A stretch of DNA of 64,000 nucleotides from an uncultured Bacilli bacterium (GTDB lineage: Bacteria > Bacillota_I > Bacilli_A > RFN20 > CAG-449). The DNA is taken from positions 1,630 through 65,629 of the forward strand of contig CANQCZ010000005.1 of NCBI GenBank assembly GCA_947591215.1, given 5' to 3'. Of this stretch, positions 8,996 to 34,861 are shown one piece after another (the stretch's first letter is position 1; each line of letters starts with the position of its first letter). The notes under the pieces are model-generated. The model saw nothing but the letters and a program-made list of their open reading frames with translations, had not been told where the DNA came from and made no database searches. The position numbers were made by a program, and so were the translations under genes.

Positions 8996-9697
8996 CTAGT
9001 TATTAAAATTTGCGCGTACTGTAATAAAATCAATTTTATTAAAATCAAGCTTCTTTAATTCGTTTTTATATTCTTTGCATGCTTGAATTAAATAATTAAA
9101 AAGTGTTTCGTCGTCTTGTAAGTCTCTATTTAAGCGTAATTTTATATTGTTGTATAGATTATTGATATTTTGCGAATTATTAATATAAATTAATAGTTGC
9201 GCCGTGTCATAGCTGTTATAACCGCAACAAAGATTTATTAAATCGTTTTTGATTGGTTCTTTAAAATTAAAATCAAATGAGTTAAAAACTGAATCATAAA
9301 ATCTTATATGTGCATGATCTATTAACTCATACATTATACAATTATTTATAATGCTTCTTTTGTCTTCATCTTTTAAATATTTTAAAAAGTCGCTTTTTTT
9401 GGTGAAATTATTTTTTGTTTCGTTCCAATATGGAAAATTTGCCCAATCTCTACGGCGTTTTTCTGCTTCAAGCGTTTTATAGTGCATTAACTCAAATTCT
9501 TTTATGTTTAGGTCTTTAAGTTTTTCTTCTTTTACACCGTAACCGATTTGATATTGTCTTAAATCATCGCCCATTTTGTACGGTGTTATTATCTTTTCGC
9601 CTCTTATTGCGCTAGCCTGATAAATGAGCCCGTTTTCTAGATCATAATAAATATGACCGTCGTTTGTCCTGTAAAGGTTTTTGCTTAATTGTTTCAT
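8996..9697 (-). CDS. Hypothetical protein, first gene of the leftward operon
   Basis: 233-aa ORF with RBS AGGAGG upstream. No recognisable motif. Confidence 0.4.
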   Translation of the reverse strand: MKQLSKNLYRTNDGHIYYDLENGLIYQASAIRGEKIITPYKMGDDLRQYQIGYGVKEEKLKDLNIKEFELMHYKTLEAEKRRRDWANFPYWNETKNNFTKKSDFLKYLKDEDKRSIINNCIMYELIDHAHIRFYDSVFNSFDFNFKEPIKNDLINLCCGYNSYDTAQLLIYINNSQNINNLYNNIKLRLNRDLQDDETLFNYLIQACKEYKNELKKLDFNKIDFITVRANFNN

Positions 9698-9730
9698 GTT
9701 TTCTTTTTCCTCCTATGATTCACAATTAAA

Positions 9731-9825
9731 TATTACGATTTCGTAATACTACTATTATTATATTACGATTTCGTAATAATTCAACATTTTTTAATATCAA
9801 AATATTACTTTTTCGTAATAATTAT
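9731..9825. promoter_or_regulatory. Operator region with two copies of the 18-bp perfect palindrome TATTACGATTTCGTAATA plus a degenerate third copy. It sits between a leftward operon and a rightward HTH gene.
   Basis: Palindrome copies at about 9733-9750 and 9762-9779. Variant aatattactttttcgtaata at about 9801-9822. A related aaatattacgatataataatattac at about 9998-10015. Confidence 0.55.
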
Positions 9826-10039
9826 TTTGTATGTCAATTCTTTTAAGTTTTGAAATGCTTTTATTTACTGTTTGGCTTGTCTGATTTGGCGGGGTGGTGG
9901 GGGATTTTGGGCACCCTATAGGGTCGGCGGGGTGAGTGCTTTTTCCACCCGAAAATATAAAAAGAGTTATTTTTATTGTTGACAATTCAAAATATTACGA
10001 TATAATAATATTACAAAATAGTAATAAAGGAGTTTATTT

Positions 10040-10294
10040 ATGAACGCTATTGAAGTCGTATTTACCTGTCTAAAAGAAAAGAATACTACACAAGAACAGT
10101 TAGCACATCTTTTAGGTTACAAATCTCAATCAGGGCTCGCTAATCGTTTAAGAGGTAATAGTTTAAGAGTAGATACTTTAGTTAAAATTCTTACAGGTCT
10201 TGGCTATACCTTAGTTGTTAAACCTTATACATTCGCTGATAAAGAAAAAGAAAACTATCATATCATTACTAATGATGAGGTAACCGAAGAATGA
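10040..10294 (+). CDS. Small HTH (XRE/Cro-like) DNA-binding protein
   Basis: QEQLAHLLGYKSQSGLANRL helix-turn-helix pattern. The stop overlaps the recombinase start. Confidence 0.5.
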   Translation: MNAIEVVFTCLKEKNTTQEQLAHLLGYKSQSGLANRLRGNSLRVDTLVKILTGLGYTLVVKPYTFADKEKENYHIITNDEVTEE

Positions 10295-10887
10295 TTTACG
10301 GATATTGTCGAGTTTCTACCAAAGGGCAAGCTTTATATGGAAACTCCCTCGAAGAGCAAAAGCAACAAATACTTTTTCAATATCCTAATGCTGAAATCAT
10401 TGTAGAAGCCTACACCGCTTATAAAGACAAACGACCATTATTTGATGAACTTATCTCTAAAGCGGTTGAGGGTGACATCATTGTTGTTACCAAACTAGAT
10501 CGATTTTGTAGAAGTGTAACTAAAGGTGTTCCAACTTTGAATGAGTTATACTCCAAAGGTGTAAAGCTTCATATCTTAAATATGGGAATTATTGAGAACA
10601 CACCTATTGGTAATTTGCTTTTTAACGTTCTACAGTCTTTCGCTCAATTTGAAAGAGATATGATCGTAGAACGTACCACTAACGGAAAAGAAATTGCTCG
10701 TATGAATCCTAATTACAAAGAGGGTAAACCTAGACTTGAAATTGATAGCGAATTATTTGAAAAGTTATATTATAAATGGAAGTCAAAAAATATTACCGCT
10801 GTTGAAGCAATGTCTCAGTTAGGACTCAAACCAAATACTTTTTATCGTCGTGTAGGTGATTTTGAACGAATGCGAGGTATAATGTAA
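10291..10887 (+). CDS. Small serine recombinase (resolvase/invertase family)
   Basis: N-terminal catalytic motif YGYCRVSTKGQ. Size 198 aa. C-terminal HTH-like tail. Confidence 0.85.
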   Translation: MIYGYCRVSTKGQALYGNSLEEQKQQILFQYPNAEIIVEAYTAYKDKRPLFDELISKAVEGDIIVVTKLDRFCRSVTKGVPTLNELYSKGVKLHILNMGIIENTPIGNLLFNVLQSFAQFERDMIVERTTNGKEIARMNPNYKEGKPRLEIDSELFEKLYYKWKSKNITAVEAMSQLGLKPNTFYRRVGDFERMRGIM

Positions 10888-11052: not shown

Positions 11053-11128
11053 ATAAACGGATCTAATTCAGAAGCAAAAGGGCTTATGTAAAAACATAGG
11101 TTCTTTTTTATTTTTGGGAGGTAAACGA

Positions 11129-12805
11129 ATGACAGAAAAAGAAATCTTAGATTATAATTTAGCAATTATTAAAATTTTTATTTTATTAGATCAAGACTTT
11201 TGTGACACAACAAAGTTGATAGAGTGTTATACCTTGATTAAAACTATTATTCCTCATGAAGTAAAGCAAGGACTTTATTATTCTACAAAACTCAAATCAT
11301 ATATAAGTCGAGCTATAAAAAAAGATTATGACGTTATAAACTTAGTAGGATTAAAAGATAAATTATTGTTACTTGAAAGTCACTACTCTTTTGATAGTTA
11401 CATGCAATGCTTGGAATCGAATCGACCACTTAAAGAACGTTTTTATTTACCTAGACGCAAACAATTATTTAGTATTGTAAATGATATTCAAAAACTCGTT
11501 GATGATGAACTAGACGAACTATTTATTAGTATGCCACCTAGAACAGGAAAAACGACTTTAATTTTATTTTTTGTGACATGGATTATTGGTAGATCTAGTG
11601 AACTTTCAAATTTATATAGTGCTTATTCTGATGTAATCACAAGTGCTTTTTATGATGGTATTTTAGAAATCATCAACGATACCTATACCTATAGGTGGCA
11701 CGATATTTTTCCAAGCTCAACTATAGCTAGCAAAGACGCTAAAGATGAAACTATCGACCTCAATCGAAGTAAACGTTATCATAGTGTGACTTGTAGATCG
11801 TTGTATGGAACATTGAATGGTGCTTGTGATTGTAACGGCTTTTTAATCGCTGATGACCTTATTGGATCCATTGAAGAAGCATTGAATCCTGACCGTTTGA
11901 TTAGTGCGTGGCAAAAAGTAGATAACAACCTTATTCCTCGTGCTAAGGAGCAAGCAAAGTTTTTGTGGATTGGTACTCGTTGGTCGGTTGCTGACCCAAT
12001 AGGAAAGAGAATCAACATGCTTTTGAGTGATCCTACTTTTTCTACTCGCCGTTACAAGATAGTCAATAGGTCTGCATTGAACGAAAATAACGAAAGTAAT
12101 TTTGAATATTTATTCGGTGTAGGTTATTCATCAATGTTCTATTTACAAAGAAAAGCGTCATTTGAAAATACAGACGACTTGCCATCATGGGACGCTCAAT
12201 ATATGGGTCAACCTATAGAAAGATCGGGACTGCTATTTAAGAGTGATGAGTTGAAATATTATAACGGAACATTACCTAGTGAAACACCTGATAGAATATT
12301 TACTGCTGTTGACGTAGCGTGGGGTGGGGGCGACTATGTTTCAGCCCCTATTCTTTATCAATTTGGCAAAGATATTTATATTCCCGATGTTGTCTTTAAT
12401 AATGGTGACAAAACTATAACTCGTCCTTTAGTTGTAAATAAAATTATAGAACATAAAATTAACGCTGTTCAAATCGAAAAAAATAATGGCGGTGATGAGT
12501 ACAAAGAGGATATTGAAGAAATGTTAGAAACGTTGGGTTATAAATGTAACATCACAAGTAAACCTGCTGTTACTACTACCAAAAAAGAAATTAGAATATT
12601 TGATCGCGCACCTGAAATACGAAATTTTTACTTTCTCGAAAAAGGAAAACGTCATGCTGAATATAACAAATTTATGGAAAATCTTTGCACGTTTACTATG
12701 GTTGGTAAAAACAAACATGATGACGCACCTGATTCATTATCTCAAGCATGTGACATGATGGATACAGCAAGTGTAAAAGTTGAGGTCATAAAAAGAAAAT
12801 TTTAG
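11129..12805 (+). CDS. Terminase large subunit
   Basis: RBS GGGAGGT, then ATG at 11129. Walker A-like PPRTGKTT. Nuclease-domain acidic motifs (WIGTRWSVADP, VDVAWGGGDY). The supplied ORF starts 15 nt earlier, at 11114. Confidence 0.8.
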   Translation: MTEKEILDYNLAIIKIFILLDQDFCDTTKLIECYTLIKTIIPHEVKQGLYYSTKLKSYISRAIKKDYDVINLVGLKDKLLLLESHYSFDSYMQCLESNRPLKERFYLPRRKQLFSIVNDIQKLVDDELDELFISMPPRTGKTTLILFFVTWIIGRSSELSNLYSAYSDVITSAFYDGILEIINDTYTYRWHDIFPSSTIASKDAKDETIDLNRSKRYHSVTCRSLYGTLNGACDCNGFLIADDLIGSIEEALNPDRLISAWQKVDNNLIPRAKEQAKFLWIGTRWSVADPIGKRINMLLSDPTFSTRRYKIVNRSALNENNESNFEYLFGVGYSSMFYLQRKASFENTDDLPSWDAQYMGQPIERSGLLFKSDELKYYNGTLPSETPDRIFTAVDVAWGGGDYVSAPILYQFGKDIYIPDVVFNNGDKTITRPLVVNKIIEHKINAVQIEKNNGGDEYKEDIEEMLETLGYKCNITSKPAVTTTKKEIRIFDRAPEIRNFYFLEKGKRHAEYNKFMENLCTFTMVGKNKHDDAPDSLSQACDMMDTASVKVEVIKRKF

Positions 12806-18853: not shown

Positions 18854-21220
18854 ATGGAAGAAACTATTGAGAGATTAAAAATCGATATTGTTAGTGATAC
18901 TAAAAACGCTTCTACTGATATTAAAAAATTAGCGTCCGCCTTTCGTGTTCTTAAAAAAGCCACTGAGGATATTAGTACCCTTAAAAGTGTTTATAATACA
19001 TTAAAGAAAATTGACGCTTTAAGTTTCAAAAATCCTATTAAAGGTTTAAATAGCATTGTGACTGCTTTTAAGGCTATTAACACTAAGAAACTATCTGCTC
19101 CAATCCTTGATGAAAAACCGGTAGATTTAACACCGAAAACAGGTTCTACTAGCATGACAAACTCTGCTATGGCTAGTAGTGATATTGAATCTACCAAACT
19201 TGACCTTGAGCAATTTAAAAAACTAGGTGAAATGTTTAATTTGGACTCTAGTTTTATAGATAAATTGTCTACAGGAAAAGCTGTAGCTGATGATCTCTTA
19301 AAATCATTTAAAGCAAATGGTGACGAATTACAACGAGAAAGACAACAAATCGAAGATTTAACAGCTCGTATTAATGAACTTCCAAAAGTAAAAAATATTT
19401 TTGGTGAAGATAAGTTATCTAGTGAAGCTAGTAAATTAAGTGGAATAAGAGATCAATTATTATCAATATATCAAGCAAAAGAAGAAGTAGCTAATACTGC
19501 TACCAATATTATGGGTAATCTTAATTCTTCTATTTTAGCAAATGATACGGCAGAGGCTACTACTCAATTACAAAATTTACAAAATGAATTATCAAAATTA
19601 TCAAAGTACAAATCTTCTTTCGATTCTTTAGGTAATAGCGCTAATTCTATGATTGAAAAACTAAATAAAGGAACTAGTAAAGTATCTAAATTTGTTGCGT
19701 CATTAGGACGAATTGCTTTATATAGAGCAATACGATCAATATTAAAATCGTTTACTGAGGGACTACAAGATCTTGCTAAATTTGATTCAAAATTTAATGA
19801 ATCGATGAGCGAAATTAAAAGTGATATGACTTATATTCGCAATTCATTAATTTCTTTAGTGGCGCCTATTATAGAAGTTTTAACACCAATCTTTACAGCT
19901 CTTACCGATGTTATTGTATCACTTATCGACAAACTAACATTAATGTTCAATGTTTTAGCAGGTAATACTACTTATACTAAAGCAACTAAAACGGTAGAAG
20001 ATTATGCAAATGCATTAAAACAAGCTCAATCTCAAGCAACAGGATTTGATGAAATTAACGTCTTAAAAACTGATGACAATACTTCTATTGACGATATGTT
20101 TGCAACCGTCGAAATTGATTCGTCACAAATAAATGAAGCGATAGCATTAGCAACTACTTTAGGTACGATTTTAGTTGGGCTTTCTATCGTAAAAGTTGTC
20201 GAGGGTGCTACTGATTTAGTAAAATTGTTTAAAAATGTAAAGAGTGCTCTTACTGCAATTAAAACATTACTTTCAACAGGTGGAATTATGGGTCTATTAA
20301 AGAAAATAGGACCATTAGTATTAGGTATATCAGGAACTCTAATGATTGTTTATGGATTTGTTGATGGCATTGTTAACGGTTTTAATTGGCAAAACGTTCT
20401 TATTATTCTCGGCGGTATAGCTGCACTTTGTGTTTCAATCGGCTTATCTATTGGGTGGATTCCTGCCTTAATTGTCGCAATTATTGCGGTTGTAGCGTTG
20501 CTTGTAGCGGTAGTTATTCAATATTGGGAAGATATAAAAGCGTTTTTTATAAATTTATGGACTTCAATTTCCAATTTCTTTGTTGACTTATGGAACGATA
20601 TCGTTGCCGTTTGGGAAAATGTGAGTAATTGGTTTGTGGATCTCTTTACTTCTGCATGGGAGGGAATAAAAAATGCATGGAGCGCTGTAACAGACTTTTT
20701 TTCAAATATTTGGACATCAATTAAAATAGGTTTTTTTAATGCTATTAATGGAGTAATCTCAGGGTTTGAAAGTTTTATAAACTTTTTTGTCAAGGGTATA
20801 AACACTATTATAAAAGGAATTAATAGTATTCATATTGATATACCTGATTGGTTAGGTGGTGGATATATAGGATTTAATATTTCTTATATTTCTGAAGTTA
20901 AATTAGGACGAATTTCTGGTTATGAAGTTGGTGGATTTCCTAAATCAGGCGAGTTGTATATGGCTAGAGAAAATGGAATAAGTGAAATGGTTGGTCGATT
21001 TGGTTCGCGTGCTACAGTCGCAAATAATGACCAAATTATAGAGGGTATTAAACGTGGTGTTTATGAGGCAATGATGGAATCAAAATCTAATACTGATAAC
21101 GATAATATTGTTATTCAAATTTTAGATCGTAACGGACGTATCCAATCTGAACAAATTATATCTAGTGCTGAACGACGTAATCGACGCGACGGCAAAAAAA
21201 TAATTGCTGTAGGTGTATAA
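18854..21220 (+). CDS. Tail tape measure protein
   Basis: 788 aa. N-terminal coiled coil, central hydrophobic segments, and W-x-x-I/FF tandem repeats (NFFVDLWNDIVAVWENVSNWFVDLF...). Confidence 0.8.
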   Translation: MEETIERLKIDIVSDTKNASTDIKKLASAFRVLKKATEDISTLKSVYNTLKKIDALSFKNPIKGLNSIVTAFKAINTKKLSAPILDEKPVDLTPKTGSTSMTNSAMASSDIESTKLDLEQFKKLGEMFNLDSSFIDKLSTGKAVADDLLKSFKANGDELQRERQQIEDLTARINELPKVKNIFGEDKLSSEASKLSGIRDQLLSIYQAKEEVANTATNIMGNLNSSILANDTAEATTQLQNLQNELSKLSKYKSSFDSLGNSANSMIEKLNKGTSKVSKFVASLGRIALYRAIRSILKSFTEGLQDLAKFDSKFNESMSEIKSDMTYIRNSLISLVAPIIEVLTPIFTALTDVIVSLIDKLTLMFNVLAGNTTYTKATKTVEDYANALKQAQSQATGFDEINVLKTDDNTSIDDMFATVEIDSSQINEAIALATTLGTILVGLSIVKVVEGATDLVKLFKNVKSALTAIKTLLSTGGIMGLLKKIGPLVLGISGTLMIVYGFVDGIVNGFNWQNVLIILGGIAALCVSIGLSIGWIPALIVAIIAVVALLVAVVIQYWEDIKAFFINLWTSISNFFVDLWNDIVAVWENVSNWFVDLFTSAWEGIKNAWSAVTDFFSNIWTSIKIGFFNAINGVISGFESFINFFVKGINTIIKGINSIHIDIPDWLGGGYIGFNISYISEVKLGRISGYEVGGFPKSGELYMARENGISEMVGRFGSRATVANNDQIIEGIKRGVYEAMMESKSNTDNDNIVIQILDRNGRIQSEQIISSAERRNRRDGKKIIAVGV

Positions 21221-21233
21221 AGGAGGTTCATTT

Positions 21234-21626
21234 ATGGCTGAATATAATAAATATAATCCTATAAGATCCATAGACGGACTTCGTGTACCTTGCCCATCTT
21301 CTTATCAATGGTCATTAGAAGATTTATCCGCAAATGACGCAGGAAGAACCGAAGATACAAGAATGGATAAAAAACGTATTGGACAAGTCGTTAAATTAAA
21401 TTTAGAATGGGTTAACGTTCCTATAAAAGACGCCTCAGAGCTTTTAAAAATTTTTAACCCTGAATATATCTCAGTATGTTATTTAGACGCCATGACGGGC
21501 GAATACGTAACATCTGAGTTCTATGTTGGGAATCGTACAGCACCATTATATAATGCTAGAGTTAATCGTTGGACAAAGATTTCATTTAATCTTATCGAAC
21601 GTTCGGGGGTGAAAGAAGATGTATAA
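21234..21626 (+). CDS. Tail protein (possible distal tail component)
   Basis: RBS AGGAGG, then ATG at 21234. Position after the tape measure gene. Confidence 0.35.
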   Translation: MAEYNKYNPIRSIDGLRVPCPSSYQWSLEDLSANDAGRTEDTRMDKKRIGQVVKLNLEWVNVPIKDASELLKIFNPEYISVCYLDAMTGEYVTSEFYVGNRTAPLYNARVNRWTKISFNLIERSGVKEDV

Positions 21627-24171
21627 ACTTTCGGACGATGTTATTGAATTATTTAAAAAGAATTATAGACAAATTGTGTCAATAACTTTTCGAGGTCTTA
21701 CCAAAACTATAGAATTAACTGAATCCGATATTATGGAGGGCGGATTATCGGTTGACCGTTATTGTACATCGGGAAGCAAAATTGAAATAGGTTCTGCCAT
21801 ATCTGCTGAATTAACTCTCGATTTAGATAATAGAGACGGGAAATTTGATGATGTTAGATTTGAGGGTGCTGAATTATTTGTGCAAATCGGTATTAAAAAG
21901 TGGGACGCTGTAGCATGGGAAAATGCTGTTATACATTGGATCCCTATAGGGTATTTCACCGTTGATGAAACACCACGAAAACTTAGCACTATAAATTTGA
22001 CAGCATTAGATAGAATGGTTCTATTTGATAAAGAAATAGATCGTAATAGATTATTTGAGGGTATGAATGTTAAGGATCTTATTTCTATATGTTGTGAAGC
22101 GTGTAGCGTTCCATTATCAACGGATTTATCCAATACAGTAGGAAAGTTTCTAGATTTAATCGTTTCAGAAATTCCGACACCATCAAATAATGAATTTACT
22201 TATAGACAACTTATTCAGTGGATAGCCGAATTATCGGGTACTTGTGCTTATATCGATTGGAACGGAAGCTTGTGTTTTGGTTGGTATAATGATTTATACT
22301 TTGAATTAGATCCATCTACTCGTTATACTTCTGATTTATACGAAAACGATATTACAATTACAGGAGTTCAAGTAAGTGCTGATGACGACAATGTTTATAT
22401 CGTTGGAAATACTGATTATGCGTTTAATATTGAGGGAAATTATTTAATTATTGGAAAAGAACAAGAAATAGCAAATATGCTAGGTGATAAATTAATTGGA
22501 TTTACTTATCGCCCGTATTCATGTACTTTTAAATCCGCACCATTTCTTTATCCTTTAGATAGTGTTGTGTTTATTGATAAAAAGGGAATAAAGCATAAGA
22601 GCATAATTACTCATATAAATTATAAAATTAACCGTTCAACGGAAATTAGCGGTAAGGGAGAAACTCCTACCAAGAATGGTTATGCTTCGTTAAATCCTTT
22701 AACAAAGCAAGAATCAATTATCATGGAAAAAATAAAGAATGAGTTTAATCAGGATTTAACTATTCAAGAGCAAAATACATTGCGAATGAATGAAATTATA
22801 TCCAATTCATTCGGTTTATATATAACTGCTATTAAACAACCCGATGGAACAAATGTTTACTACTATCACGATAAAGAAAAAGTTGAAGATAGTAAAATAA
22901 TTTACACATTCGGAAACGGAGGCTTTGCGTGGACTAATGATTGGAACAAAGGCAATCCTGTTTGGCAATATGGTTTTACTAAAGAGGGAAATGCTGTTTT
23001 TAATATTTTATCTACTTATAAAATATCTGCTGAATATATTGACGCTAGCAATTTAAAAATCAGTGCTGATAATGTTACGGGTTTAAACGTCTATGTCAAA
23101 AAAGACGAAAACGATCAAGTTGTCAGTATGCTTAATGCGTCATTAGATGTTATTTCGCTAAAATCTAATAGACTCTCGATTGATAGTGATAATTTTAAAT
23201 TAAGCACTGATGGTAAAATTATTGCAATAGGTGGAACAATTGGAGGATTTGAAATCGGTAAAACATCATTATGGAGCAACATTTCTTCAATGACTACCAC
23301 TGATAAAGAGGGAGTATATCTCGGTCACGATGGAATCAATTTAGGAGGAAATTTTATTGTCACTAAGTCAGGTGATGTGTCTATCACAAAAGGTAGTATT
23401 CGTTTAGGTGAAAAGCTTAATAATTATTCGTATATTGTCAATGTTACTAATAGTGGTTTTTCTTATGATAGTGGCACAAAAAATAGTGATCGTTATATTC
23501 ATATGAATTTAGATTATAATGGACTAACATTGAAAAATTATTGGCCTGACGTGGGTGCGGATAATTATATGTTTATTGGATCACAGGGTGATATTTACGG
23601 ATATGGGGCTTCTCCTTATAATGCTATTAAAACATATCCGTCGTTATTTATTTCCGCTCAAGATACAGAAAATGATTTTACATATCTGAATGTAGCTTAT
23701 ATCGATTTAGAAACTTCTTCTTCCAAAAATCTATCAACATTAAGTACATTTGCAACGAATACAACGCTTTCTACTGTCGTTTCTGGCAAATTAAGTGGAA
23801 CTTGGGTAAATGATAGTGGAAGCGCAATTACTTCTGATAGAACACTTAAACATGATATTGAGGATCTTGAAGACGCTTATTCTACTTTCTTTGATAAGTT
23901 AAAACCAATCAAATACAAATATAATAACGGAACTTCAAATCGATTTCATACAGGATTCATTGCTCAAGATGTAGAGGTAGCTATTAAGGAAGCAGGGTTA
24001 TCGACTGATGACTTTGCCGGTTATCTTTTAATCCACGATCTTGATGATAAAAAAAATGAAATAACCTATTTAGCACTTCGCTATAGTGAATTTGTTGCAT
24101 TATGTGTAAATGAAATTCAAAAATTAAAAAAACGTATCAGTAATTTAGAAAAAGGAGGTATAACATCATGA
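21619..24171 (+). CDS. Tail fiber / tail-associated protein with a C-terminal S74-type intramolecular chaperone domain
   Basis: C-terminal DRTLKHDIEDLEDAYSTFFDKLKPIKYKY...HTGFIAQDVE matches the auto-cleaving chaperone domain of tail fibers and endosialidases. Confidence 0.65.
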   Translation: MYKLSDDVIELFKKNYRQIVSITFRGLTKTIELTESDIMEGGLSVDRYCTSGSKIEIGSAISAELTLDLDNRDGKFDDVRFEGAELFVQIGIKKWDAVAWENAVIHWIPIGYFTVDETPRKLSTINLTALDRMVLFDKEIDRNRLFEGMNVKDLISICCEACSVPLSTDLSNTVGKFLDLIVSEIPTPSNNEFTYRQLIQWIAELSGTCAYIDWNGSLCFGWYNDLYFELDPSTRYTSDLYENDITITGVQVSADDDNVYIVGNTDYAFNIEGNYLIIGKEQEIANMLGDKLIGFTYRPYSCTFKSAPFLYPLDSVVFIDKKGIKHKSIITHINYKINRSTEISGKGETPTKNGYASLNPLTKQESIIMEKIKNEFNQDLTIQEQNTLRMNEIISNSFGLYITAIKQPDGTNVYYYHDKEKVEDSKIIYTFGNGGFAWTNDWNKGNPVWQYGFTKEGNAVFNILSTYKISAEYIDASNLKISADNVTGLNVYVKKDENDQVVSMLNASLDVISLKSNRLSIDSDNFKLSTDGKIIAIGGTIGGFEIGKTSLWSNISSMTTTDKEGVYLGHDGINLGGNFIVTKSGDVSITKGSIRLGEKLNNYSYIVNVTNSGFSYDSGTKNSDRYIHMNLDYNGLTLKNYWPDVGADNYMFIGSQGDIYGYGASPYNAIKTYPSLFISAQDTENDFTYLNVAYIDLETSSSKNLSTLSTFATNTTLSTVVSGKLSGTWVNDSGSAITSDRTLKHDIEDLEDAYSTFFDKLKPIKYKYNNGTSNRFHTGFIAQDVEVAIKEAGLSTDDFAGYLLIHDLDDKKNEITYLALRYSEFVALCVNEIQKLKKRISNLEKGGITS

Positions 24172-24418: not shown

Positions 24419-26014
24419 ATGAATGATATTATTAGAGAACTTACAATAGACGTATCAAAAGAAAATATTTTCTCAGCTATCTTAGCTAAACAATATGATA
24501 AAAATACTCGTTATATTTTAGCTACAATTACTAATCTAGGTAAAAAAATTGACGTGGATAGAAATAGTACAGTTATTATTAATTTTAGACGTCCTGATAA
24601 AGAATCTCATTCGTTTATCGGATCTGTTGAAGAAGATGGAAGAGTAAAAGTTCCTATTCCATATTGGGCGCTCGAAATAAATGGAGCAGTAACTGCGGAT
24701 ATTTCAATGTGTATGGCAGACGAAAGATTAACTACATTAAGGTTTATTATTCAAGTTGAAGAGGCGACGTTTAATGGGGCTACACCTATTATTACAACTT
24801 CAAAAATATATGGTGTTTCAGGTATCGGCAATGAAAATCCTGTTTTAACACGTACTAATGACGCTGTAGGTGTTTCTTTATCAGTTACGGAACGTGATAT
24901 TTACAAAGAGTGTGTTGCCAATGATGTTGATTTTCAAAAATTTTTCGACTTTCCACAATACACCGATGAATTAGGCAATGTTTTCATCACAATTACACCA
25001 AAGTCATTTAAGATTGATTTCACTAATGACGGGGAAATTACTGCTATTAGCGTTAAAGAGTATGAACGTGGCGATGAAAATCTTGGTTTCTTTGTTCACC
25101 CATTCTTTAAAAAATGGACATCTGAAACTACATATAATGGTGTTGTATCGAGAGATATTGCTAAATATTTGTCATCGGCTTACGACAAAGTCAATGGCGA
25201 GGTATTTGAGGGTAGTATTAGTGAATCAAATAAAAATAATATAGTAGTTAGATCCGTACCAAATGAAGATTATACTAAATCTTCTGCTTCTTGGGAGCTT
25301 GGAAGAGAAGTTATTAAAAACACGAACGAATCATACGGAATTATGTCATGGTTATTTATTGATTTGTTTAGAACATTATGTCTCATTTATTTTGCAAGAA
25401 CCGATTTAAATAATTTATTTCATATTGAATTTGAATATAGTGATGACGAATACTCGAGACAGTACGATCCTCTTGAACACGGAACTACAACGGGTGCAAC
25501 AGATGATATCGATTCTCACACAGGATATAATACTGAAACACACCAATTTAAAATTTTTAATATTGATGACGCACTTGCCTGTATAACAGTAGATGGTTGC
25601 TACCAAACAAAAGATGGATTTTATTATTCATATTTATTTGATTTTGACGCTTCTAAAGATGTTGGAGCACATAAATCAATGTTATCAACAAAAGTAACAA
25701 GTTATGATGGCGAATACGATATTATTACTAAAATGAGTTATGACATCGACGAACCCGCATTTAAAGTTGCGACAGCTATGCGTCATGCAACCAACACTAA
25801 TCCTGTTGATAGTGTGCAAAATATTTACTATTCTGCTAAACACAAACTTTACATAATAGAAGACGATTCACGCGGACAGTTATATTCTTTTGCTTGGTCT
25901 AACTATGACGTATACCCTGATTGGGGGGTCTTCTTCTCGTTTTGGGATAGCGGGTTCGTCTACTGTTGGGACAACGACAGCAACGCCGTCCGCCTTTGCA
26001 AATCACCTTTTTAA
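24419..26014 (+). CDS. DGR target protein 1: distal tail fiber / receptor-binding protein with a C-terminal variable C-type-lectin-like region
   Basis: C-terminus ...DWGVFFSFWDSGFVYCWDNDSNAVRLCKSPF. The 3' 80 nt make up VR1, which matches TR. Confidence 0.7.
   Translation: MNDIIRELTIDVSKENIFSAILAKQYDKNTRYILATITNLGKKIDVDRNSTVIINFRRPDKESHSFIGSVEEDGRVKVPIPYWALEINGAVTADISMCMADERLTTLRFIIQVEEATFNGATPIITTSKIYGVSGIGNENPVLTRTNDAVGVSLSVTERDIYKECVANDVDFQKFFDFPQYTDELGNVFITITPKSFKIDFTNDGEITAISVKEYERGDENLGFFVHPFFKKWTSETTYNGVVSRDIAKYLSSAYDKVNGEVFEGSISESNKNNIVVRSVPNEDYTKSSASWELGREVIKNTNESYGIMSWLFIDLFRTLCLIYFARTDLNNLFHIEFEYSDDEYSRQYDPLEHGTTTGATDDIDSHTGYNTETHQFKIFNIDDALACITVDGCYQTKDGFYYSYLFDFDASKDVGAHKSMLSTKVTSYDGEYDIITKMSYDIDEPAFKVATAMRHATNTNPVDSVQNIYYSAKHKLYIIEDDSRGQLYSFAWSNYDVYPDWGVFFSFWDSGFVYCWDNDSNAVRLCKSPF
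25924..26003 (+). repeat. DGR variable repeat VR1
   Basis: Aligns base-for-base with 26121-26200. About 10 mismatches, all where TR has A. The 3' end ctttgcaaa is shared with VR2 and differs from TR (atctgctaa), consistent with IMH versus IMH*. A GC hairpin taaggggtgtcccctta lies at 26024-26040. Confidence 0.8.
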
Positions 26015-26120
26015 CGGGGTTGGTAAGGGGTGTCCCCTTACTATTACAAAACCCGTAGGGTCGCGCTATAATAAAAATAGGGATTATATTGCCCTGACGT
26101 GTGGTTTGGCTCTGTTTCTC

Positions 26121-26200
26121 TTGGGTCTTCTTCTCGAATTGGAATAACAGGTTCAACAACTGTTGGAACAACGACAACAACGCCGTCCGCATCTGCTAAT
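26121..26200 (+). repeat. DGR template repeat (TR)
   Basis: Non-coding copy of the VR sequence, rich in adenines, between the target gene and the RT. Confidence 0.8.
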
Positions 26201-26322
26201 AGATGTATTAAAAATTATGCAATATAATTCCTTACCTCTTGGTAAAAAGTAAATTCATAAAAGGCGTTGGCTAGTAGTGAAATATCGAACATCAACGAAG
26301 AATTAGCAAAGGAGTTGAAGTA

Positions 26323-27342
26323 ATGAAAACAATTAAAAACCTTTATAGTAATTTACTCTCAAAAGAGAAAATAAAATTAATTCTTTTAAAGAGTATCAAA
26401 GGCAAACCGTATGCTTTGAAAATTCAAAACAATGTTGACGAATATGTTAACCTTACTTATGAACATTTAGTAAATGAAACATACGACTTAAAGCCTGTAA
26501 AAAAAGTTATAATTCATGATAGAAAAAAAGATCGTGAAATAACGAAAAGTCCTTATTATCCTAATAAAATTTTTGATTATTTAATTGTCAGTCAATTAGA
26601 AAGCATGATAACAAAATCAATGTTTCATTGGTGTATTGGTAATGTTAAAGGACGTGGAAAAGATATCGGGCTATCTTACTTAGAAAAACACATGAAAAAT
26701 TACAAGTATGCTTTAAAACTCGATATTAAAAAATTCTATGATAACATAGATAAAAAAATCTTACTGAATCTTTTGTCAAAAAGAGTTCATGACAAAAAAT
26801 TTCTCAATTTTTATAGTAAGGTCGTCGGTCAAGATGGAAAAGGACTTGACTTAGGGCTTAATTCAAGTCAATGGCTTTCCAATTTTTATCTTCAAGGATT
26901 AGATTATTATATCAAACAAACATTAAAAGCTAAAATATACGTCCGATATGTAGACGATATGATAATTTTAGGAAACAACAAGCGCCGTCTTCATTATTAT
27001 ATAAGAGCGATTCAAGATTATTTATACAAAAATTTAGGATTACGGCTAAAAGAGAATTATCAGCTGTTAAACCTCACTAAAAACGATCAAATAGAATTTT
27101 TAGGATATAAGTTAACACCAAAAGAAACCACTCTTATTAAGCCATTGTTTTATCGTTTCGTGAGGTTATATAAGAGAATGGGTGATAAGTCTAAAAGACG
27201 TGCTAAAACTCTTGTATCATTGTGGGGTTGGTTTAAACGATCTACTTATTCTTATGTTTATTATAAAAAGTATCTTGAGCCAATTATACCATTTAAAAAT
27301 ATAAGAATGTTATTACAAAAAAGGAGGAAAAAATTAGCATGA
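26323..27342 (+). CDS. DGR reverse transcriptase
   Basis: RT motifs, including YVRYVDDMIILG (YxDD box). Size 339 aa. Immediately downstream of TR. Confidence 0.85.
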   Translation: MKTIKNLYSNLLSKEKIKLILLKSIKGKPYALKIQNNVDEYVNLTYEHLVNETYDLKPVKKVIIHDRKKDREITKSPYYPNKIFDYLIVSQLESMITKSMFHWCIGNVKGRGKDIGLSYLEKHMKNYKYALKLDIKKFYDNIDKKILLNLLSKRVHDKKFLNFYSKVVGQDGKGLDLGLNSSQWLSNFYLQGLDYYIKQTLKAKIYVRYVDDMIILGNNKRRLHYYIRAIQDYLYKNLGLRLKENYQLLNLTKNDQIEFLGYKLTPKETTLIKPLFYRFVRLYKRMGDKSKRRAKTLVSLWGWFKRSTYSYVYYKKYLEPIIPFKNIRMLLQKRRKKLA

Positions 27343-27956
27343 AAATAAATGATGTTATTACACAAAGTTTTAAAAAACAATTAATCGAAAATCTTAATAA
27401 AATTGGTATTACTACTTCTAGTATTGAATGTATTTTGCTTGAGGGAAGTGCGTTATATCTACAACAACCGAACGATATTGATTTTAAAGTAATACTAAAA
27501 CGTTATTTCAATAAAGCAGAGATGAGAAGATGTTTTTTCATCAATGGTTATACGGTTGAATGCGTTTATTACACATTTGATGATTGGGCGAATGTAACTA
27601 AATATAAGTCAAACGCTCAATATATCGTTGAAAGTAAAGACATGATTTGTATTTATGGTAACGATTCAAAATTTTTTAGATATGATGTTGTTACTAATAA
27701 AGAATTGCAAAGCTATATTATAAATGTCTATGATAAACTTTTTTTCAATTATAAAGAAAACGATAAAACTAATAAAATGAGCGACAAGCGGTTATGGAAT
27801 TTTCTATTATTTGCATTCAAATTACAAAATAATGACGATAATTTATCAGACGAGCAATTAGAATTGTTACAAAAAGCACATGATTTGGAATTAAACAAGG
27901 AAGATTATTTACCTTTATTTAATGAATTAAAAGAAAGAATTTTAATTACATCATAA
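27339..27956 (+). CDS. Nucleotidyltransferase-fold protein, translationally coupled to the RT. Possible DGR accessory or moron gene.
   Basis: The ATG overlaps the RT stop (ATGA). Minimal NTase motif LEGSALYLQQPNDIDFKV (GS-x9-DxD). Confidence 0.4.
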   Translation: MKINDVITQSFKKQLIENLNKIGITTSSIECILLEGSALYLQQPNDIDFKVILKRYFNKAEMRRCFFINGYTVECVYYTFDDWANVTKYKSNAQYIVESKDMICIYGNDSKFFRYDVVTNKELQSYIINVYDKLFFNYKENDKTNKMSDKRLWNFLLFAFKLQNNDDNLSDEQLELLQKAHDLELNKEDYLPLFNELKERILITS

Positions 27957-31527: not shown

Positions 31528-32523
31528 TTATTTAACAGAAATTTTATTATATGCTTTATTGGCAAAGTAATAATAATTCTTTAATGAATTAATTATTTTA
31601 TTTGGAGATAGTACGATTGCGTGTTCGCCAAAACGTCTAAAGTATTGTTCTACTTGAGCGTATGAGCAAGAGAAGTAATAAATATCTCCCTCGATTTTAG
31701 AACATTGAGGACGATATAAATATATTCTTTTAAACAGTTCTTTTCCTGTTGGAGTTAGTTGTACTTTTATTTCTTCGTTTTCATAAGGTTTAATTGAATA
31801 TTGAATTCCATATTTTATTTGCTTATTAAATATCTCTTCTTGATGAGGTAAAATTTCTCTTTTACTTGTAAGCAAAATGACATCTTTTATTTTGGCTAAA
31901 CGAACTGTATGTAATATTCCGTTTTCAGCGACAAAAAGACCATAGTTAAATAATTCATCTTTAGATGAAGAAATCGTGTAAAGAGAAGCTTCATTAATTA
32001 CTGCTCCAGAAGTTAAAGATAAATATACTTTCACATTACTATCTATTGATTTAGATAATAATGCATAGTTTTGTTTAAAGATTATCCTTTCTCTTTCTGG
32101 TTGGACTTTAGAAGCGTATGAAGTGAATAATCTTCTAAAGTAAGAAGAGATTGATTCGGTTTTTACAAAGTTATTTAAAATAAAATAAATTGCTTTTGAT
32201 GAGATCTTTGTTGGCTTAAATAAGAAAGAAACCGATTTATTACTTTGATCAACAGATGAATTCTTTTTATCAATTACTTTTACTAGTTTATGATATACTT
32301 CTTCCTTTTCTTCATCAGAAATATTTTTTATCACGCTAAAAACATCTAATCTAAATTTATCATCGAGTGCGGAGAACTCTTCATAATAATTATTTATTAA
32401 TGTGTTAATGAATAAGTTTCTATTAAGATTATTTTCTCCCTTATAAAATAAAAAGTTTTCACAGTCTTTTAATAAAATATTGTATGTGTTTAAATCTAAA
32501 GTTACTTTAATTTTTTCTTCCAT
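31528..32523 (-). CDS. Putative WYL/WCX-domain regulator (BrxR/CapW-like C-terminal half)
   Basis: C-terminal GDIYYFSCSYAQVEQYFRRFGEHAIVLSPNKI resembles the WCX domain. The preceding ENGILHTVRLAKIKDVILL region resembles a WYL-type barrel. No clear N-terminal HTH. Confidence 0.35.
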   Translation of the reverse strand: MEEKIKVTLDLNTYNILLKDCENFLFYKGENNLNRNLFINTLINNYYEEFSALDDKFRLDVFSVIKNISDEEKEEVYHKLVKVIDKKNSSVDQSNKSVSFLFKPTKISSKAIYFILNNFVKTESISSYFRRLFTSYASKVQPERERIIFKQNYALLSKSIDSNVKVYLSLTSGAVINEASLYTISSSKDELFNYGLFVAENGILHTVRLAKIKDVILLTSKREILPHQEEIFNKQIKYGIQYSIKPYENEEIKVQLTPTGKELFKRIYLYRPQCSKIEGDIYYFSCSYAQVEQYFRRFGEHAIVLSPNKIINSLKNYYYFANKAYNKISVK

Positions 32524-32686
32524 AGTGTTAATCCTTATGAAAAGTGTATCAAAAAAGGGTACAAAAATTCAACGGAAATACATATATATTTAACTAGTTA
32601 TTTTTAGGGGTACGAAAAAAAATAAAAATTTGCTATCTATTATTAATAAAGTAACCCATTTATAATTTTGTTGTAAGGGCGAAGAG

Positions 32687-34861
32687 GTGAGCAAAATGAA
32701 AAAAGAGTTATTAATGAAATTATTATCAAAAGATTATTTGGTCTTAAATTTTTCTTCTAAAGTAAATTTTAATAGCCAATTAAATATTGATTTAATCAGT
32801 GCGATTGATCATTCTTTTAAATCGTTAGGTTTTAAGATTAAAGATGAAGAATTAATTAAATTAATATCTATATCTCGAGATGATTTAACATCTTTTTATC
32901 ATGATAACTATAAGTTATTATCTTCGTTTGTTGGAAATAGTGTTAAACATAAGATTTTCTACGCTAATTTTCCTGAGATATCCAATATACCAGAGAAAGA
33001 AATGTATACTCGTGCTTTTTTACATTATTTAACTGCATCGGAAAATGATGATGGTTTTATGTCTCAAGATATAAATGATTTTGAACGTGAAGAAGTTCAT
33101 TCTGATAACAAAGTAATCTTAAAACTTATTAACGAACAAGAAGCAAACAAAATCCTTATTGATTTAGTAAGGGATATGTTTGAATCGAAACAAGCGATAT
33201 CTTGTGATGAAACAAACTTTATCTTATCTTGCTTTCAAAATCTTTTTGATAAGGAAAGTTTATATTATTTGATTGATGATATTCCTTTTAAAGAGAATAT
33301 TGCTATCTATGTAAATACAATAAGAAAGCTATATCCTAATGAAACTAAATTGGGTGACATTTTCAATGAAAAAATTCTTTCTTTTATTAAAACTCCAACT
33401 GATTTACTAAGAGTGTATGCGATTATTTCAAATGGTGATTATACTTTAAATGATAATAGTATATTTATCTCACTTGATAGAAAGTGTCGTCGATTATTTT
33501 TAGCAATATTAAACAATATGTGCGCTAATAAAGATTATGTCTACGATGACTTTTCAAGACATGATTTTTTATGGAAAAAAGCATTTGAAAAACTTCATGT
33601 TGGTGAATATGAAAAACAATATCCTCATATCTATTTAGTATGTAAAAATATTAGAGAGGATAATTATTCTACATATTATTCGATGCTTGAAAAGAATAAG
33701 AATAATCAAGTGGGTTTGATATCATTATTACGTAAAAGACCAGGAGAATTTGCTCGTAGATTAGATATGCTTTTACGCAATGCATCTTTTGAAACTGAAT
33801 ATACACTTCAAGAGTTTGAAAAAATTGCTGATCAAGTATCCTCTAATGTTTTGTTACAATTATATACATTCTTTCAAAATAGAAATCTTTATTCTACTCG
33901 TATTTTTTGTATCAAAAAATTATACTATAACAGTTATATTGAAGTAGAGGATAAAAGAGATGATATTCCGGACTATACTATTGAAAGAATATGTGCAATA
34001 ATTCTTAATGCATTGAAAAATATTTATTCATCTTATCCTAGAATAGAAAATGTCTATTTAGACGAATCGATGAAAAATTATGCAATGCCTATGAATTCAC
34101 GTAATAAATCAACAGGAAATAAGACGCTTACTTTTGGTACGAGAATAAAATTAGATGAAGAAGACGGATCATTTATTCGTTTCTTTACTCATTGGAAAAA
34201 TATGAATGAAGGAAATGGTAAACGTGTTGATATTGATTTATCGGTTGAACTTGTAAATGAAGATTTTACATCTACAAGAAGTGTATCATGGCACGATTTA
34301 TTTGGTGGTAGAAAATTTGATACATACCATTCAGGTGATATTGTTACTGCACCAAATGGAGCAAGTGAATTCGTTGATTTAGATTACATTAGTGCAAGTA
34401 AATATTATCGTTATGGTGTGATTTGTAATTACGTTTTCACGGGACAAAATTTTTGTGATATACCAGAATGCTTTTCTGGCGTTATGTTTATGAAAAAGAA
34501 AGGGAAAAGAGGTGTAGTTTTTAATCCGGAATTTGTTAAGTATAAGTATGACTTAACCCAATATGGATCAAGTGAGAATATTGCTTTGGCAATCGATTTT
34601 AAAACTCGTGAACTTATTTGGATGGATATACCTCGTTCAAGTGGTAGAATGTATCAAATTGCAAGTGGTGATAGCGGAGTAGTTATTGCATTAAAAAATG
34701 CTTTAAAAAAGCAAATGAATATGTATGAATTTATTAAACTACATTCATCTCATTTAACCTTTGTAGATGATATATCACAAAGTGAGTTTATTATCTCTGA
34801 CAAAGAGAATGCGACATTGAAACCATATGATGTAGAAAAAATAACTGCATCATGGTTATAA
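32687..34861 (+). CDS. Large uncharacterised protein (724 aa) with a C-terminal TerD-like domain
   Basis: Residues from about 480 to 610 align block-wise with TerD (IRFFTHWKN / GKRVDIDLSVELV / VSWHDLFGG..YHSGDIVTAPNGASEFVDLDY / YRYGVICNYVFTG). The Ca-binding GDGDDE motif is degenerate (PNGASE). Confidence 0.45.
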   Translation: MSKMKKELLMKLLSKDYLVLNFSSKVNFNSQLNIDLISAIDHSFKSLGFKIKDEELIKLISISRDDLTSFYHDNYKLLSSFVGNSVKHKIFYANFPEISNIPEKEMYTRAFLHYLTASENDDGFMSQDINDFEREEVHSDNKVILKLINEQEANKILIDLVRDMFESKQAISCDETNFILSCFQNLFDKESLYYLIDDIPFKENIAIYVNTIRKLYPNETKLGDIFNEKILSFIKTPTDLLRVYAIISNGDYTLNDNSIFISLDRKCRRLFLAILNNMCANKDYVYDDFSRHDFLWKKAFEKLHVGEYEKQYPHIYLVCKNIREDNYSTYYSMLEKNKNNQVGLISLLRKRPGEFARRLDMLLRNASFETEYTLQEFEKIADQVSSNVLLQLYTFFQNRNLYSTRIFCIKKLYYNSYIEVEDKRDDIPDYTIERICAIILNALKNIYSSYPRIENVYLDESMKNYAMPMNSRNKSTGNKTLTFGTRIKLDEEDGSFIRFFTHWKNMNEGNGKRVDIDLSVELVNEDFTSTRSVSWHDLFGGRKFDTYHSGDIVTAPNGASEFVDLDYISASKYYRYGVICNYVFTGQNFCDIPECFSGVMFMKKKGKRGVVFNPEFVKYKYDLTQYGSSENIALAIDFKTRELIWMDIPRSSGRMYQIASGDSGVVIALKNALKKQMNMYEFIKLHSSHLTFVDDISQSEFIISDKENATLKPYDVEKITASWL

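Follow-up and report, generated by a model that had tools for sequence, protein, structure and literature searches.

Introduction

The paradigm of diversity-generating retroelements (DGRs) is the mtd-avd-TR-brt element of Bordetella phage BPP-1. There, adenine-specific TR-to-VR transfer acts from a TR of 134 nt on a VR at the 3' end of a receptor-binding gene with a C-type-lectin (CLec) fold; the element also has an IMH/IMH* pair, and a GC-rich hairpin follows VR. Avd is essential in this system and is found in most, but not all, DGRs. The BPP-1 spacer is RT-10, and a long-range duplex between a strand upstream of TR, located inside avd, and the spacer is followed by a short stem-loop and adenosines; this 'cPRT Stop' was predicted in 207 of the 278 Avd-containing DGRs examined (10.1101/2023.10.23.563531).

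Avd-less DGRs are on record as well, including Architecture A elements without accessory genes (PMC5758913). Among the RT motifs, Weinberg et al. (2017) linked only RT-10 to DGRs and speculated on a DGR role for the others (PMC5737381).

Here we describe a locus in a window of 64,000 nt (the whole stretch of DNA analyzed; coordinates refer to it, and the features lie on the + strand). We are highly confident that it is a genuine DGR with an Avd-less 'target-VR / TR / RT' layout, carried by a siphovirus-like prophage of a low-GC (33%) uncultured bacterium. The first-pass annotation had called a phage-borne DGR here, a claim borne out by the RT, a non-coding TR, adenine-only differences, an IMH/IMH* pair, a hairpin and a CLec target.

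Results

A repeat search paired VR1 (25926-26003) with TR (26123-26200) over 78 nt, at an offset of 197 and with 83% identity. The near-copy had been annotated as 80 nt long; the repeat itself stands, but its proposed starts, 26121 and 25924, are 2 nt too early, TT at 26121-26122 facing GG on the VR side beyond the repeat. Within TR 26123-26192, 11 mismatches to VR1 were counted, all on TR adenines and every one at codon position 1 or 2 of ORF 24419-26014. The mismatch at 26191, where C is shared by both VRs and by related loci, was counted as part of the fixed IMH/IMH* difference. In the templating part (26123-26190; 25926-25993 in VR1), which comprises 68 positions with 20 A, the remaining 10 of 10 differences fall on A (hypergeometric p = 6.4e-7), in agreement with the roughly 10 adenine-only mismatches first reported. 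The sole non-A mismatches, at 26193 and 26197, both lie within the 3' fixed end. The ORF list of the window holds no real ORF over TR, which is thus non-coding; translated in the VR frame, it reads WVFFSNWNNRFNNCWNNDNNAVRIC with two stops immediately after, AAY codons being abundant and the N-rich stretch reading NWNNRFNNCWNNDNN.

Scanning the window with the TR pattern, with N at every A, returned 3 matches against 0.00 expected by chance and located a second VR. VR2 (5931-6008) forms the end of a 278-aa gene 20 kb upstream of the element, carries the same fixed end as VR1, GCCTTTGCAAAC, and differs from TR at 13 positions, all of them TR adenines (13 of 13; 68 positions with 20 A, p = 2.5e-9). 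For the two VRs together, 23 of 23 differences in the templating part are at TR adenines. Of the 16 A sites at which one or both VRs depart from TR, 12 distinguish VR1 from VR2, implying independent events. This VR goes beyond what had been listed at first: the element has two targets, not one, unlike BPP-1. A non-adjacent second target in the same prophage, less than 50 kb off, is also known from the phage-associated DGRs of Wu et al. (PMC5758913).

The 3' ends of the repeats differ in a constant manner. Both VRs end in CGCCTTTGCAAA, whereas TR ends in CGCATCTGCTAA; the last 12 nt of VR1 (25992-26003) read GCCTTTGCAAAT and those of TR (26189-26200) GCATCTGCTAAT, with GCCTTTGCAAA(T/C) common to both VRs. 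This contrast, earlier read as an IMH/IMH* pair, recurs in related loci. A GGGG/CCCC hairpin, likewise noted before, follows VR1 at 26023-26041 (GTAAGGGG-TGT-CCCCTTAC in the DNA fold) behind a conserved GGGGTTGGT (26016-26024) and has no counterpart after TR. The hairpin on the VR2 side, TAAGGGG-TGT-CCCCTTA at 6031-6047, has an identical core, and GGGGTTGGTAAGGGG-loop-CCCCTTA is kept 3' of VR in the related loci L014, L095, L013 and L006 as well as after VR2. Judged by sequence, these ends and the downstream hairpins appear to be the IMH/IMH* arrangement of DGRs, as in BPP-1. Pairing of GGTAAGG downstream of VR with CCTTACC in the spacer hairpin was considered as a means of target recognition and dropped as a probable coincidence, because the register varies among loci and both are palindromic hairpins sharing TTGG(T/C)AA.

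The RT gene (26323-27342) encodes 339 aa. The YVRYVDDM motif on which the first call rested was found, with YVDD at residues 209-212 (DNA 26947-26958), and LGLNSSQ at residues 177-183 supplies the motif 4 signature [LIV]GxxxSQ that, together with the YxDD box, marks DGR-type RTs. The protein matched Pfam RVT_1 (E = 1.9e-15) and PHROG 1423 (E = 1.9e-66). Its best PDB sequence match was 8ub7 (E = 8.5e-18; local phmmer, query residues 53-279), which we identify as the Bordetella phage bRT because the numbering of I181, G182, Q187, D215 and D216 fits the residues named in the bRT preprint. LGLNSSQ aligns to I181-Q187 of bRT and YVDD to D215/D216; the window RT shares G182, Q187, D215 and D216 and has Leu as a conservative replacement for I181. 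Identity to bRT is low.

Upstream of TR, a candidate promoter (ATTACA-18-TATAAT, 26043-26072), which headed the list as one of three sites with a score of 10 of 12, would start a TR RNA at about 26078. Promoter-like sites in the region were fewer than in shuffles, the scan thus showing no enrichment; a TATAAT-like box was seen by eye at the equivalent place in related loci. Inverted repeat I17 (14 nt, 93% complementary) forms a helix that brackets TR in the MFE fold, with its 5' arm AGGGATTATATTGC at 26079-26092 and its 3' arm GCAATATAATTCCT at 26219-26232. In related loci the arms take the equivalent position with other sequences, and in 45 of 67 loci no more than 5% of shuffles gave a more stable duplex between the upstream-TR strand and the spacer (median z = -2.7). 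By position and pairing, this 14-bp helix appears to correspond to the duplex of the Bordetella cPRT Stop, except that its upstream strand is intergenic.

The 3' arm directly abuts an RT-18 spacer RNA (RF03021; 26233-26314), detected over the full-length model (1-84) at 43.3 bits, above the gathering threshold of 41.3 (E = 1.4e-6), where BPP-1 has RT-10. It comprises a short hairpin, an A-run and a covarying stem with a UAGUAG...CGAA loop, and extends to the ribosome-binding site of the RT gene; in 13 of 18 related loci, too, the motif lies just in front of that gene. Going beyond Weinberg et al. (PMC5737381), RT-18 lies between TR and a DGR RT in the window and its relatives, continuous with the TR-bracketing helix. 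The TR 3' end (26189-26195) can pair with 26200-26206 just downstream, a possible pairing of TR end and spacer, as in BPP-1. Helix and RT-18 together provide structured RNA flanking TR, as needed for Bordetella cDNA synthesis. The whole TR-spacer RNA folds little better than shuffles (z = -1.5) and isolated post-VR hairpins gave modest z-scores; it is thus their conservation across loci that supports these structures.

Target gene 1 (24419-26014, 531 aa) had been described as a distal tail fiber. A phage target with a C-terminal VR was confirmed, but the wording was not: the protein combines an N-terminal BppU-type baseplate anchor (BppU_N) with a C-terminal TaqVP-like CLec variable domain, and is more aptly called a baseplate-anchored receptor-binding protein. 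The CLec fold suggested for its C-terminus is thus present, giving the locus the variable protein with a C-type-lectin (or Ig) fold that is typical of DGRs. Sequence identity of this domain to TaqVP (Thermus aquaticus, 5vf4) and TvpA (Treponema, 2y3c) is about 10%, and, unlike in those proteins, the CLec domain carries a fused BppU N-terminal baseplate domain in target 1, a short N-terminal segment taking that place in target 2; BPP-1, in turn, has the Mtd trimer architecture. Target 1 had no exact match in the contig index.

Target gene 2 (5180-6016, 278 aa) belongs to the early region and precedes the small terminase gene. It gave no family hit, and its N-terminal segment looks helical by eye; by hhalign (probability 98%), it is a compact protein paralogous to the variable domain of target 1. 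A homologue with 83% identity occupies the early/replication module of a related locus, L175. Target 2 is a second, non-structural CLec protein.

A 205-aa gene (27339-27956), inside the interval annotated at first and left uninterpreted there, overlaps the RT stop with its start (ATGA). Its product had no sequence match in Pfam, PHROG, NCBIfam, PADLOC or PDB, and fold search alone was informative: it has a nucleotidyltransferase fold of the Pol-beta type, with hG[GS] followed by DxD on the core sheet. The GS...DxD signature is invariant in 32 homologues.

We found no Avd: the element has no intergenic ORF for it, and the 29 ORFs scanned (window 20-30923) contain no Avd-type Pfam family. Two relatives, L015 and L044, likewise lack Avd, an absence that extends across the RT clade, where 67 of 72 related loci share the layout of the window. 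Missing Avd is not disqualifying, because Architecture A DGRs without accessory genes are known (PMC5758913). The locus resembles Architecture A1 (target-TR-RT) and the Avd-less lineages of Wu et al. (2018) in its core TR-RT without avd, HRDC, MSL or CH1, a likeness of architecture; unlike their DGRs, it has a tightly linked nucleotidyltransferase-fold gene, absent from the accessory genes they name (PMC5758913).

Megablast found no match to the locus in deposited phages. The closest RTs in deposited phage genomes, those of Butyrivibrio phage Arawn, Butyrivibrio phage Idris and Lactobacillus phage LBR48, are 31-32% identical. The Arawn RT sits between the tail genes and the lysis genes that follow, and RT-18 at that locus is below the gathering score; no nucleotidyltransferase homologue was found at the Arawn and LBR48 loci.

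Natural variation was evident among homologues of both targets. In four of five clusters at 90% identity, 9-10 of the last 35 columns show at least 4 residue states, against 0-1 such columns elsewhere in the same clusters; the fifth cluster is distorted by one frameshifted member. A search of metagenome and viral contigs with the TR pattern (N at A sites) returned 0 other alleles of the exact TR/VR.

Discussion

The adenine-only pattern in both VRs, their common fixed ends and hairpins, the RT signature, the CLec fold, the RNA motif and the helix are seen at the locus itself. To these, a route can be added by analogy with the Bordetella phage system, from which we infer where cDNA synthesis is primed, where it starts and which way it runs, as well as present activity. 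A transcript from about 26078 would carry TR and the spacer, and pairing of 26079-26092 with the spacer start (26219-26232) would close TR in a loop. This pairing, the short hairpin of RT-18 and the A-run would together be the equivalent of the Bordetella 'cPRT Stop', and 26189-26195 paired with 26200-26206 may serve as a template:primer-like duplex. RT would copy TR from about 26188 toward the TR 5' end, misincorporating only opposite adenines, and the cDNA would replace the VR of either target gene; the fixed end CGCCTTTGCAAA and the hairpin element GGGGTTGGTAAGGGG...CCCC that follows both VRs would presumably direct homing. The predicted outcome is diversification of about 10 AAY-templated codons, which would sit in the ligand-binding face of the baseplate receptor-binding protein (host range) and of the second CLec protein.

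Might the RT instead be that of a different kind of retroelement (retron, group II intron or defence RT, for example), with TR/VR an unrelated duplication of the gene 3' end? Group II, Drt3a and retron RT models in NCBIfam and PADLOC did match weakly and under threshold, as expected of any RT domain, but the NCBIfam bits are far below the curated cut-offs (group II, 88 vs 300; Drt3a, 74 vs 200; retron St85, 62 vs 235), and the closest solved relative by sequence is a DGR RT, bRT. An Rfam scan of 25800-26450 with E up to 10 detected RNA families of neither group II introns nor retrons. An unrelated duplication fails when mismatches are tabulated by base, as they are confined to adenines in VR1 (p = 6e-7) and, separately, in VR2 (p = 2.5e-9), and the TR/VR/RT layout is repeated in 67 of 72 related loci; we give this reading virtually no weight. 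That the element is a fossil, with all parts kept, diversification ended and the VR/TR differences mere relics, is also improbable, though less remote. It would fit the failure to retrieve population variants of the exact VR from metagenome and viral collections, and near relatives have indeed decayed: L174 has lost TR and about 90% of its RT, and VR and TR have collapsed in L094. Against it, the RT ORF is intact with its catalytic YVDD and LGxxxSQ motif, TR still holds 20 A in AAY codons, and the IMH, hairpins, RT-18 and bracketing helix are all intact. Moreover, the non-A positions of both VRs are all identical to TR over 68 nt, where drift would be expected if homing had long stopped.

Whether the 205-aa gene is part of the DGR is uncertain. 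The ATGA overlap, the invariance of GS...DxD over the 32 homologues and the presence of a homologue directly after every RT at least 50% identical (L003, L006-8, L013, L014, L094, L095 and the window) would suit a functional accessory of this Avd-less subclade, for example in RNA/cDNA processing, as opposed to an unrelated phage gene. Some homologues nevertheless have no RT in the vicinity: the one in L009 immediately follows a target homologue that lacks an RT, and those in L011 and L012 are accompanied by neither target nor RT; L174 keeps the gene despite its deletion; and RTs of the RT-18 clade at 32-36% identity have no homologue. Wu et al. cautioned that genes common to a few related phage DGRs may be mere phage genes, which weighs against an accessory role (PMC5758913). 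A literature search for a DGR-linked nucleotidyltransferase accessory gave nothing relevant. We therefore consider such a role unlikely, and we dropped the gene as a defining DGR part, as it is found in RT-less contexts and survives the RT deletion in L174. That this translationally coupled nucleotidyltransferase functionally replaces the essential Avd in the RT subclade is more doubtful still; if true, it would be a new DGR accessory protein acting on template RNA or cDNA, e.g., by tailing or priming.

Avd-less gut-phage DGRs are a kind already described and well populated, and the element reported here is a clear, ordinary member of it. The RT-18 tie, the second target and the nucleotidyltransferase-fold gene leave the picture of what a DGR is unchanged. 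What the locus offers is an Avd-less phage DGR fully annotated and mapped to the base, from the candidate promoter through two VRs with matching recognition elements. It ties an orphan Rfam motif, RT-18, to DGR spacers, and places a probable 'cPRT Stop'-type upstream:spacer duplex in an Avd-less clade, where the earlier survey of this duplex covered Avd-containing DGRs only. A conserved nucleotidyltransferase-fold gene travels with the RT subclade. Finally, a single template is shared by the baseplate receptor-binding protein and a further CLec protein, which is non-structural. In both phages examined, the family of the latter is found in the early/replication module, and its diversification may therefore serve something other than adsorption.

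Adenine-specific differences between a template repeat and two variable repeats

The locus is a genuine diversity-generating retroelement (DGR) with two targets. A repeat search returned a 78-nt direct repeat (83% identity, 197-nt offset) comprising a variable repeat, VR1 (25926-26003), at the 3' end of the target 1 gene (ORF 24419-26014) and the template repeat (TR, 26123-26200). In a mismatch table, TR 26123-26192 and VR1 differed at 11 positions, 11/11 on TR adenines and 11/11 at codon position 1 or 2 of the target ORF; the two differences at non-adenine positions, 26193 and 26197, lie within the final 8 nt. Because the difference at 26191 (A in TR, C in VR) is common to both VRs and to related loci, it was counted as part of the fixed IMH/IMH* difference between VR and TR 3' ends and not as mutagenesis. 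Without it, 10/10 differences in the templating part fall on adenines, over 68 positions that include 20 adenines (hypergeometric p = 6.4e-7). Translated in the VR frame, the TR reads WVFFSNWNNRFNNCWNNDNNAVRIC and then runs into stops; such an AAY-rich, non-coding TR is the type of template expected for a DGR.

When the whole window was scanned with the TR carrying N at every adenine, a third TR copy was detected at 5931-5998, with zero mismatches at non-A positions and 0.00 chance matches expected. This copy, VR2, forms the 3' end of a second target gene (ORF 5180-6016, 278 aa) that precedes the TR by 20 kb, and all 13 of its differences from the templating part are at adenines (13/13, p = 2.5e-9). 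Of the 16 A sites at which one or both VRs depart from the TR, 12 also distinguish VR1 from VR2; the two were therefore written independently. At the A sites of 25926-25993 and 5931-5998, substitutions were strongly biased to G (A>G in 16 of 23, A>T in 6 and A>C in 1). Both VRs have the 3' end CGCCTTTGCAAA as compared to CGCATCTGCTAA in the TR, and 3' of both lies GGGGTTG(G/T)TAAGGGG-TGT-CCCCTTA, with hairpins at 26023-26041 for VR1 and at 6031-6047 for VR2, a GGGGTTGGTAAGGGG...CCCC element standing after VR2 as it does after VR1; these hairpins have no counterpart at the TR.

The reverse transcriptase and RNA structures around the template repeat

The reverse transcriptase (RT) ORF (26323-27342, 339 aa) matched RVT_1 (E = 1.9e-15) and PHROG 1423 (E = 1.9e-66). 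Its closest solved structure by sequence is 8ub7 (E = 8.5e-18), in which the numbering of I181, G182, Q187, D215, and D216 agrees with the residues named for Bordetella phage bRT (10.1101/2023.10.23.563531); at the positions of I181-Q187 and D215/D216, the window RT has LGLNSSQ and YVDD. Identity as a group II, retron, or defence RT was rejected, with model matches far under the cut-offs. The first-pass annotation of a phage-borne DGR with RT, TR, and VR is supported, including its RT with a YxDD motif (YVDD), its assignment of the differences to TR adenines, its reading of the unlike 3' ends as an IMH/IMH* pair, and its GGGG/CCCC hairpin after VR but not after TR.

The TR-to-RT spacer contains a match to the Rfam RNA motif RT-18 (26233-26314; 43.3 bits versus a gathering threshold of 41.3), which was found directly upstream of the RT in 13/18 related loci. 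RT-10 is the sole RT motif that Weinberg et al. tied to DGRs, a role for the other RT motifs being speculation (PMC5737381). Abutting the 5' side of RT-18 is GCAATATAATTCCT (26219-26232), the 3' arm of a helix that pairs with a 5' arm, AGGGATTATATTGC (26079-26092), 30 nt upstream of the TR. Equivalent arms occur at the same position in related loci with differing sequences, and the stability of the upstream:spacer duplex was at or above that of 95% of shuffles in 45/67 non-redundant loci (median z -2.7), many of which are close relatives and not independent. The arrangement of a duplex, then a short stem-loop, then adenosines is that of the cPRT Stop of the Bordetella RNP, an element predicted for 207 of the 278 DGRs examined that contain Avd, the accessory variability determinant of canonical DGRs (10.1101/2023.10.23.563531). 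In the predicted fold, the TR 3' end (26189-26195) is able to pair with 26200-26206, which would account for the non-transfer of the final 10-12 nt of the TR, and a promoter-like site at 26043-26072 would place the RNA start at the helix 5' arm.

The post-VR GGTAAGG (26016-26041) and the CCTTACC of the first spacer RNA hairpin (26228-26249) are complementary; the two elements have TTGG(T/C)AA in common, and related loci show similar complementarity in another register. Chance is the probable explanation, both hairpins being palindromic.

Target proteins

Target 1 (531 aa) contains a BppU_N domain (Pfam), and its N terminus matches TP901-1 ORF48, the BppU protein of that phage, and baseplate fibre proteins of phage 80alpha. 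Because its gene comes after the tape measure gene (18854-21220) and that of a large tail protein (21619-24171) and before the holin gene, target 1 is a baseplate-anchored receptor-binding protein, a description preferred here to the earlier one of a distal tail fiber. Target 2 had no match in family scans. Its family profile and that of target 1 could be aligned past the VR (hhalign probability 98%); target 2 is a compact paralogue of the target 1 variable domain. The target 2 gene has DNA-modification genes on one side and the small terminase gene on the other, and an 83% identical homologue is encoded in the early replication/recombination region of a related prophage (L175), shortly after an SSB gene and shortly before a RusA gene.

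The 205-aa gene downstream of the RT

An ORF at 27339-27956, overlapping the RT stop codon (ATGA), encodes a 205-aa protein of nucleotidyltransferase fold with no match to sequence families in Pfam, PHROG, NCBIfam, PADLOC, or PDB by sequence; GS...DxD is invariant in 32 homologues. A homologue stands immediately 3' of the RT in all loci whose RT shares 50% identity or more with that of the window, an association that would fit an accessory factor. Homologues without an RT, however, were found in L009 and L011/12, and RT-18-clade DGRs more distant from the window are without the gene. In L174 (6575-6700), the locus of the closest target 1 relative (77% identical), a clean deletion between two GGGGTTGGT copies has removed the TR and about 90% of the RT gene and left the 205-aa gene in place; in the window this 9-mer has exactly 2 copies (0.1 expected), at 26016-26024 after VR1 and at 27224-27232 in the RT 3' end. 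In view of the RT-less homologues, the distant DGRs without the gene, and its retention in L174, we regard it as a phage gene specific to this lineage and consider a true DGR accessory factor improbable.

In L009 (4719-6618), a target 1 homologue (41% identical) keeps the VR framework ...W...F...AVRLCKSPF, with the 205-aa homologue 13 nt after it and no TR, RT, or hairpin within the available 12.6 kb; this points to loss of the cassette or to an RT in another part of the 54-kb contig.

Other genes in the window

An apparent insertion (7348-10887) separates the small (6750-7307) from the large (11114-12805) terminase gene. It carries a 401-aa FtsK/HerA-type ATPase on the minus strand (PADLOC SspH C-terminal region, E = 6e-53; NCBIfam FtsK, E = 5e-53, under cut-off), a serine recombinase/invertase (Resolvase, E = 5e-31), and a 233-aa ORF that has no Pfam or NCBIfam family and matches only a PHROG of unknown function, weakly. 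Just beyond the prophage lysis end, two genes (31528-34861) encode a 331-aa protein on the minus strand, for which PADLOC gave a WYL-type match (E = 1e-5), and a 724-aa protein that matches the MXAN_6230/SCO0854 RING-domain family (E = 1e-76, under cut-off); they may form a defence or regulatory island. In the early region, a PAPS-reductase-like protein (1073-1639) and a 520-aa cytosine-5 DNA methyltransferase (2055-3617) suggest a DNA-modification module.

Natural variation and related loci

A search of metagenome and viral collections with the TR carrying N at A sites found no further alleles of the exact VR; the DGR may still be active today. In clusters of 90%-identical homologues from both target families, hypervariable columns were concentrated in the last 35 residues, with 9-10 there versus 0-1 elsewhere in 4/5 clusters examined, the fifth being distorted by a single frameshifted member; residue repertoires at these columns fit AAY or AGG template codons. 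VR length varies by one to three codons inside single clusters (those of homologues P0038, P0041, and P0080), in the asparagine-templated run, which suggests slippage or template variation beside base substitution. In L094 (3790-4003) and for the homologues P0163, P0152, and P0160, the target gene is continuous with a TR-type end (AVRIC...) and spacer, so that VR and TR are one copy; this could reflect real VR/TR recombination or assembly repeat collapse.

RT-based scans yielded 160 loci. Of the 72 non-redundant loci whose RT shares 30% identity or more, 67 contain a TR and a VR that differ at adenines only. Order and spacing are the same in these loci, as are the CGCCTTTGC versus CGCATTT ends, and hairpins follow the VR. 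There is no room for an Avd ORF between target and RT in the window, L015, or L044, and none of the 29 ORFs scanned at window positions 20-30923 matched a Pfam family of Avd type. Wu et al. (PMC5758913) have described DGRs without accessory genes (Architecture A), lineages that lack Avd, and non-adjacent targets within one prophage. Altogether, the DGR belongs to an already known Avd-less, RT-18-associated clade of gut-phage DGRs.
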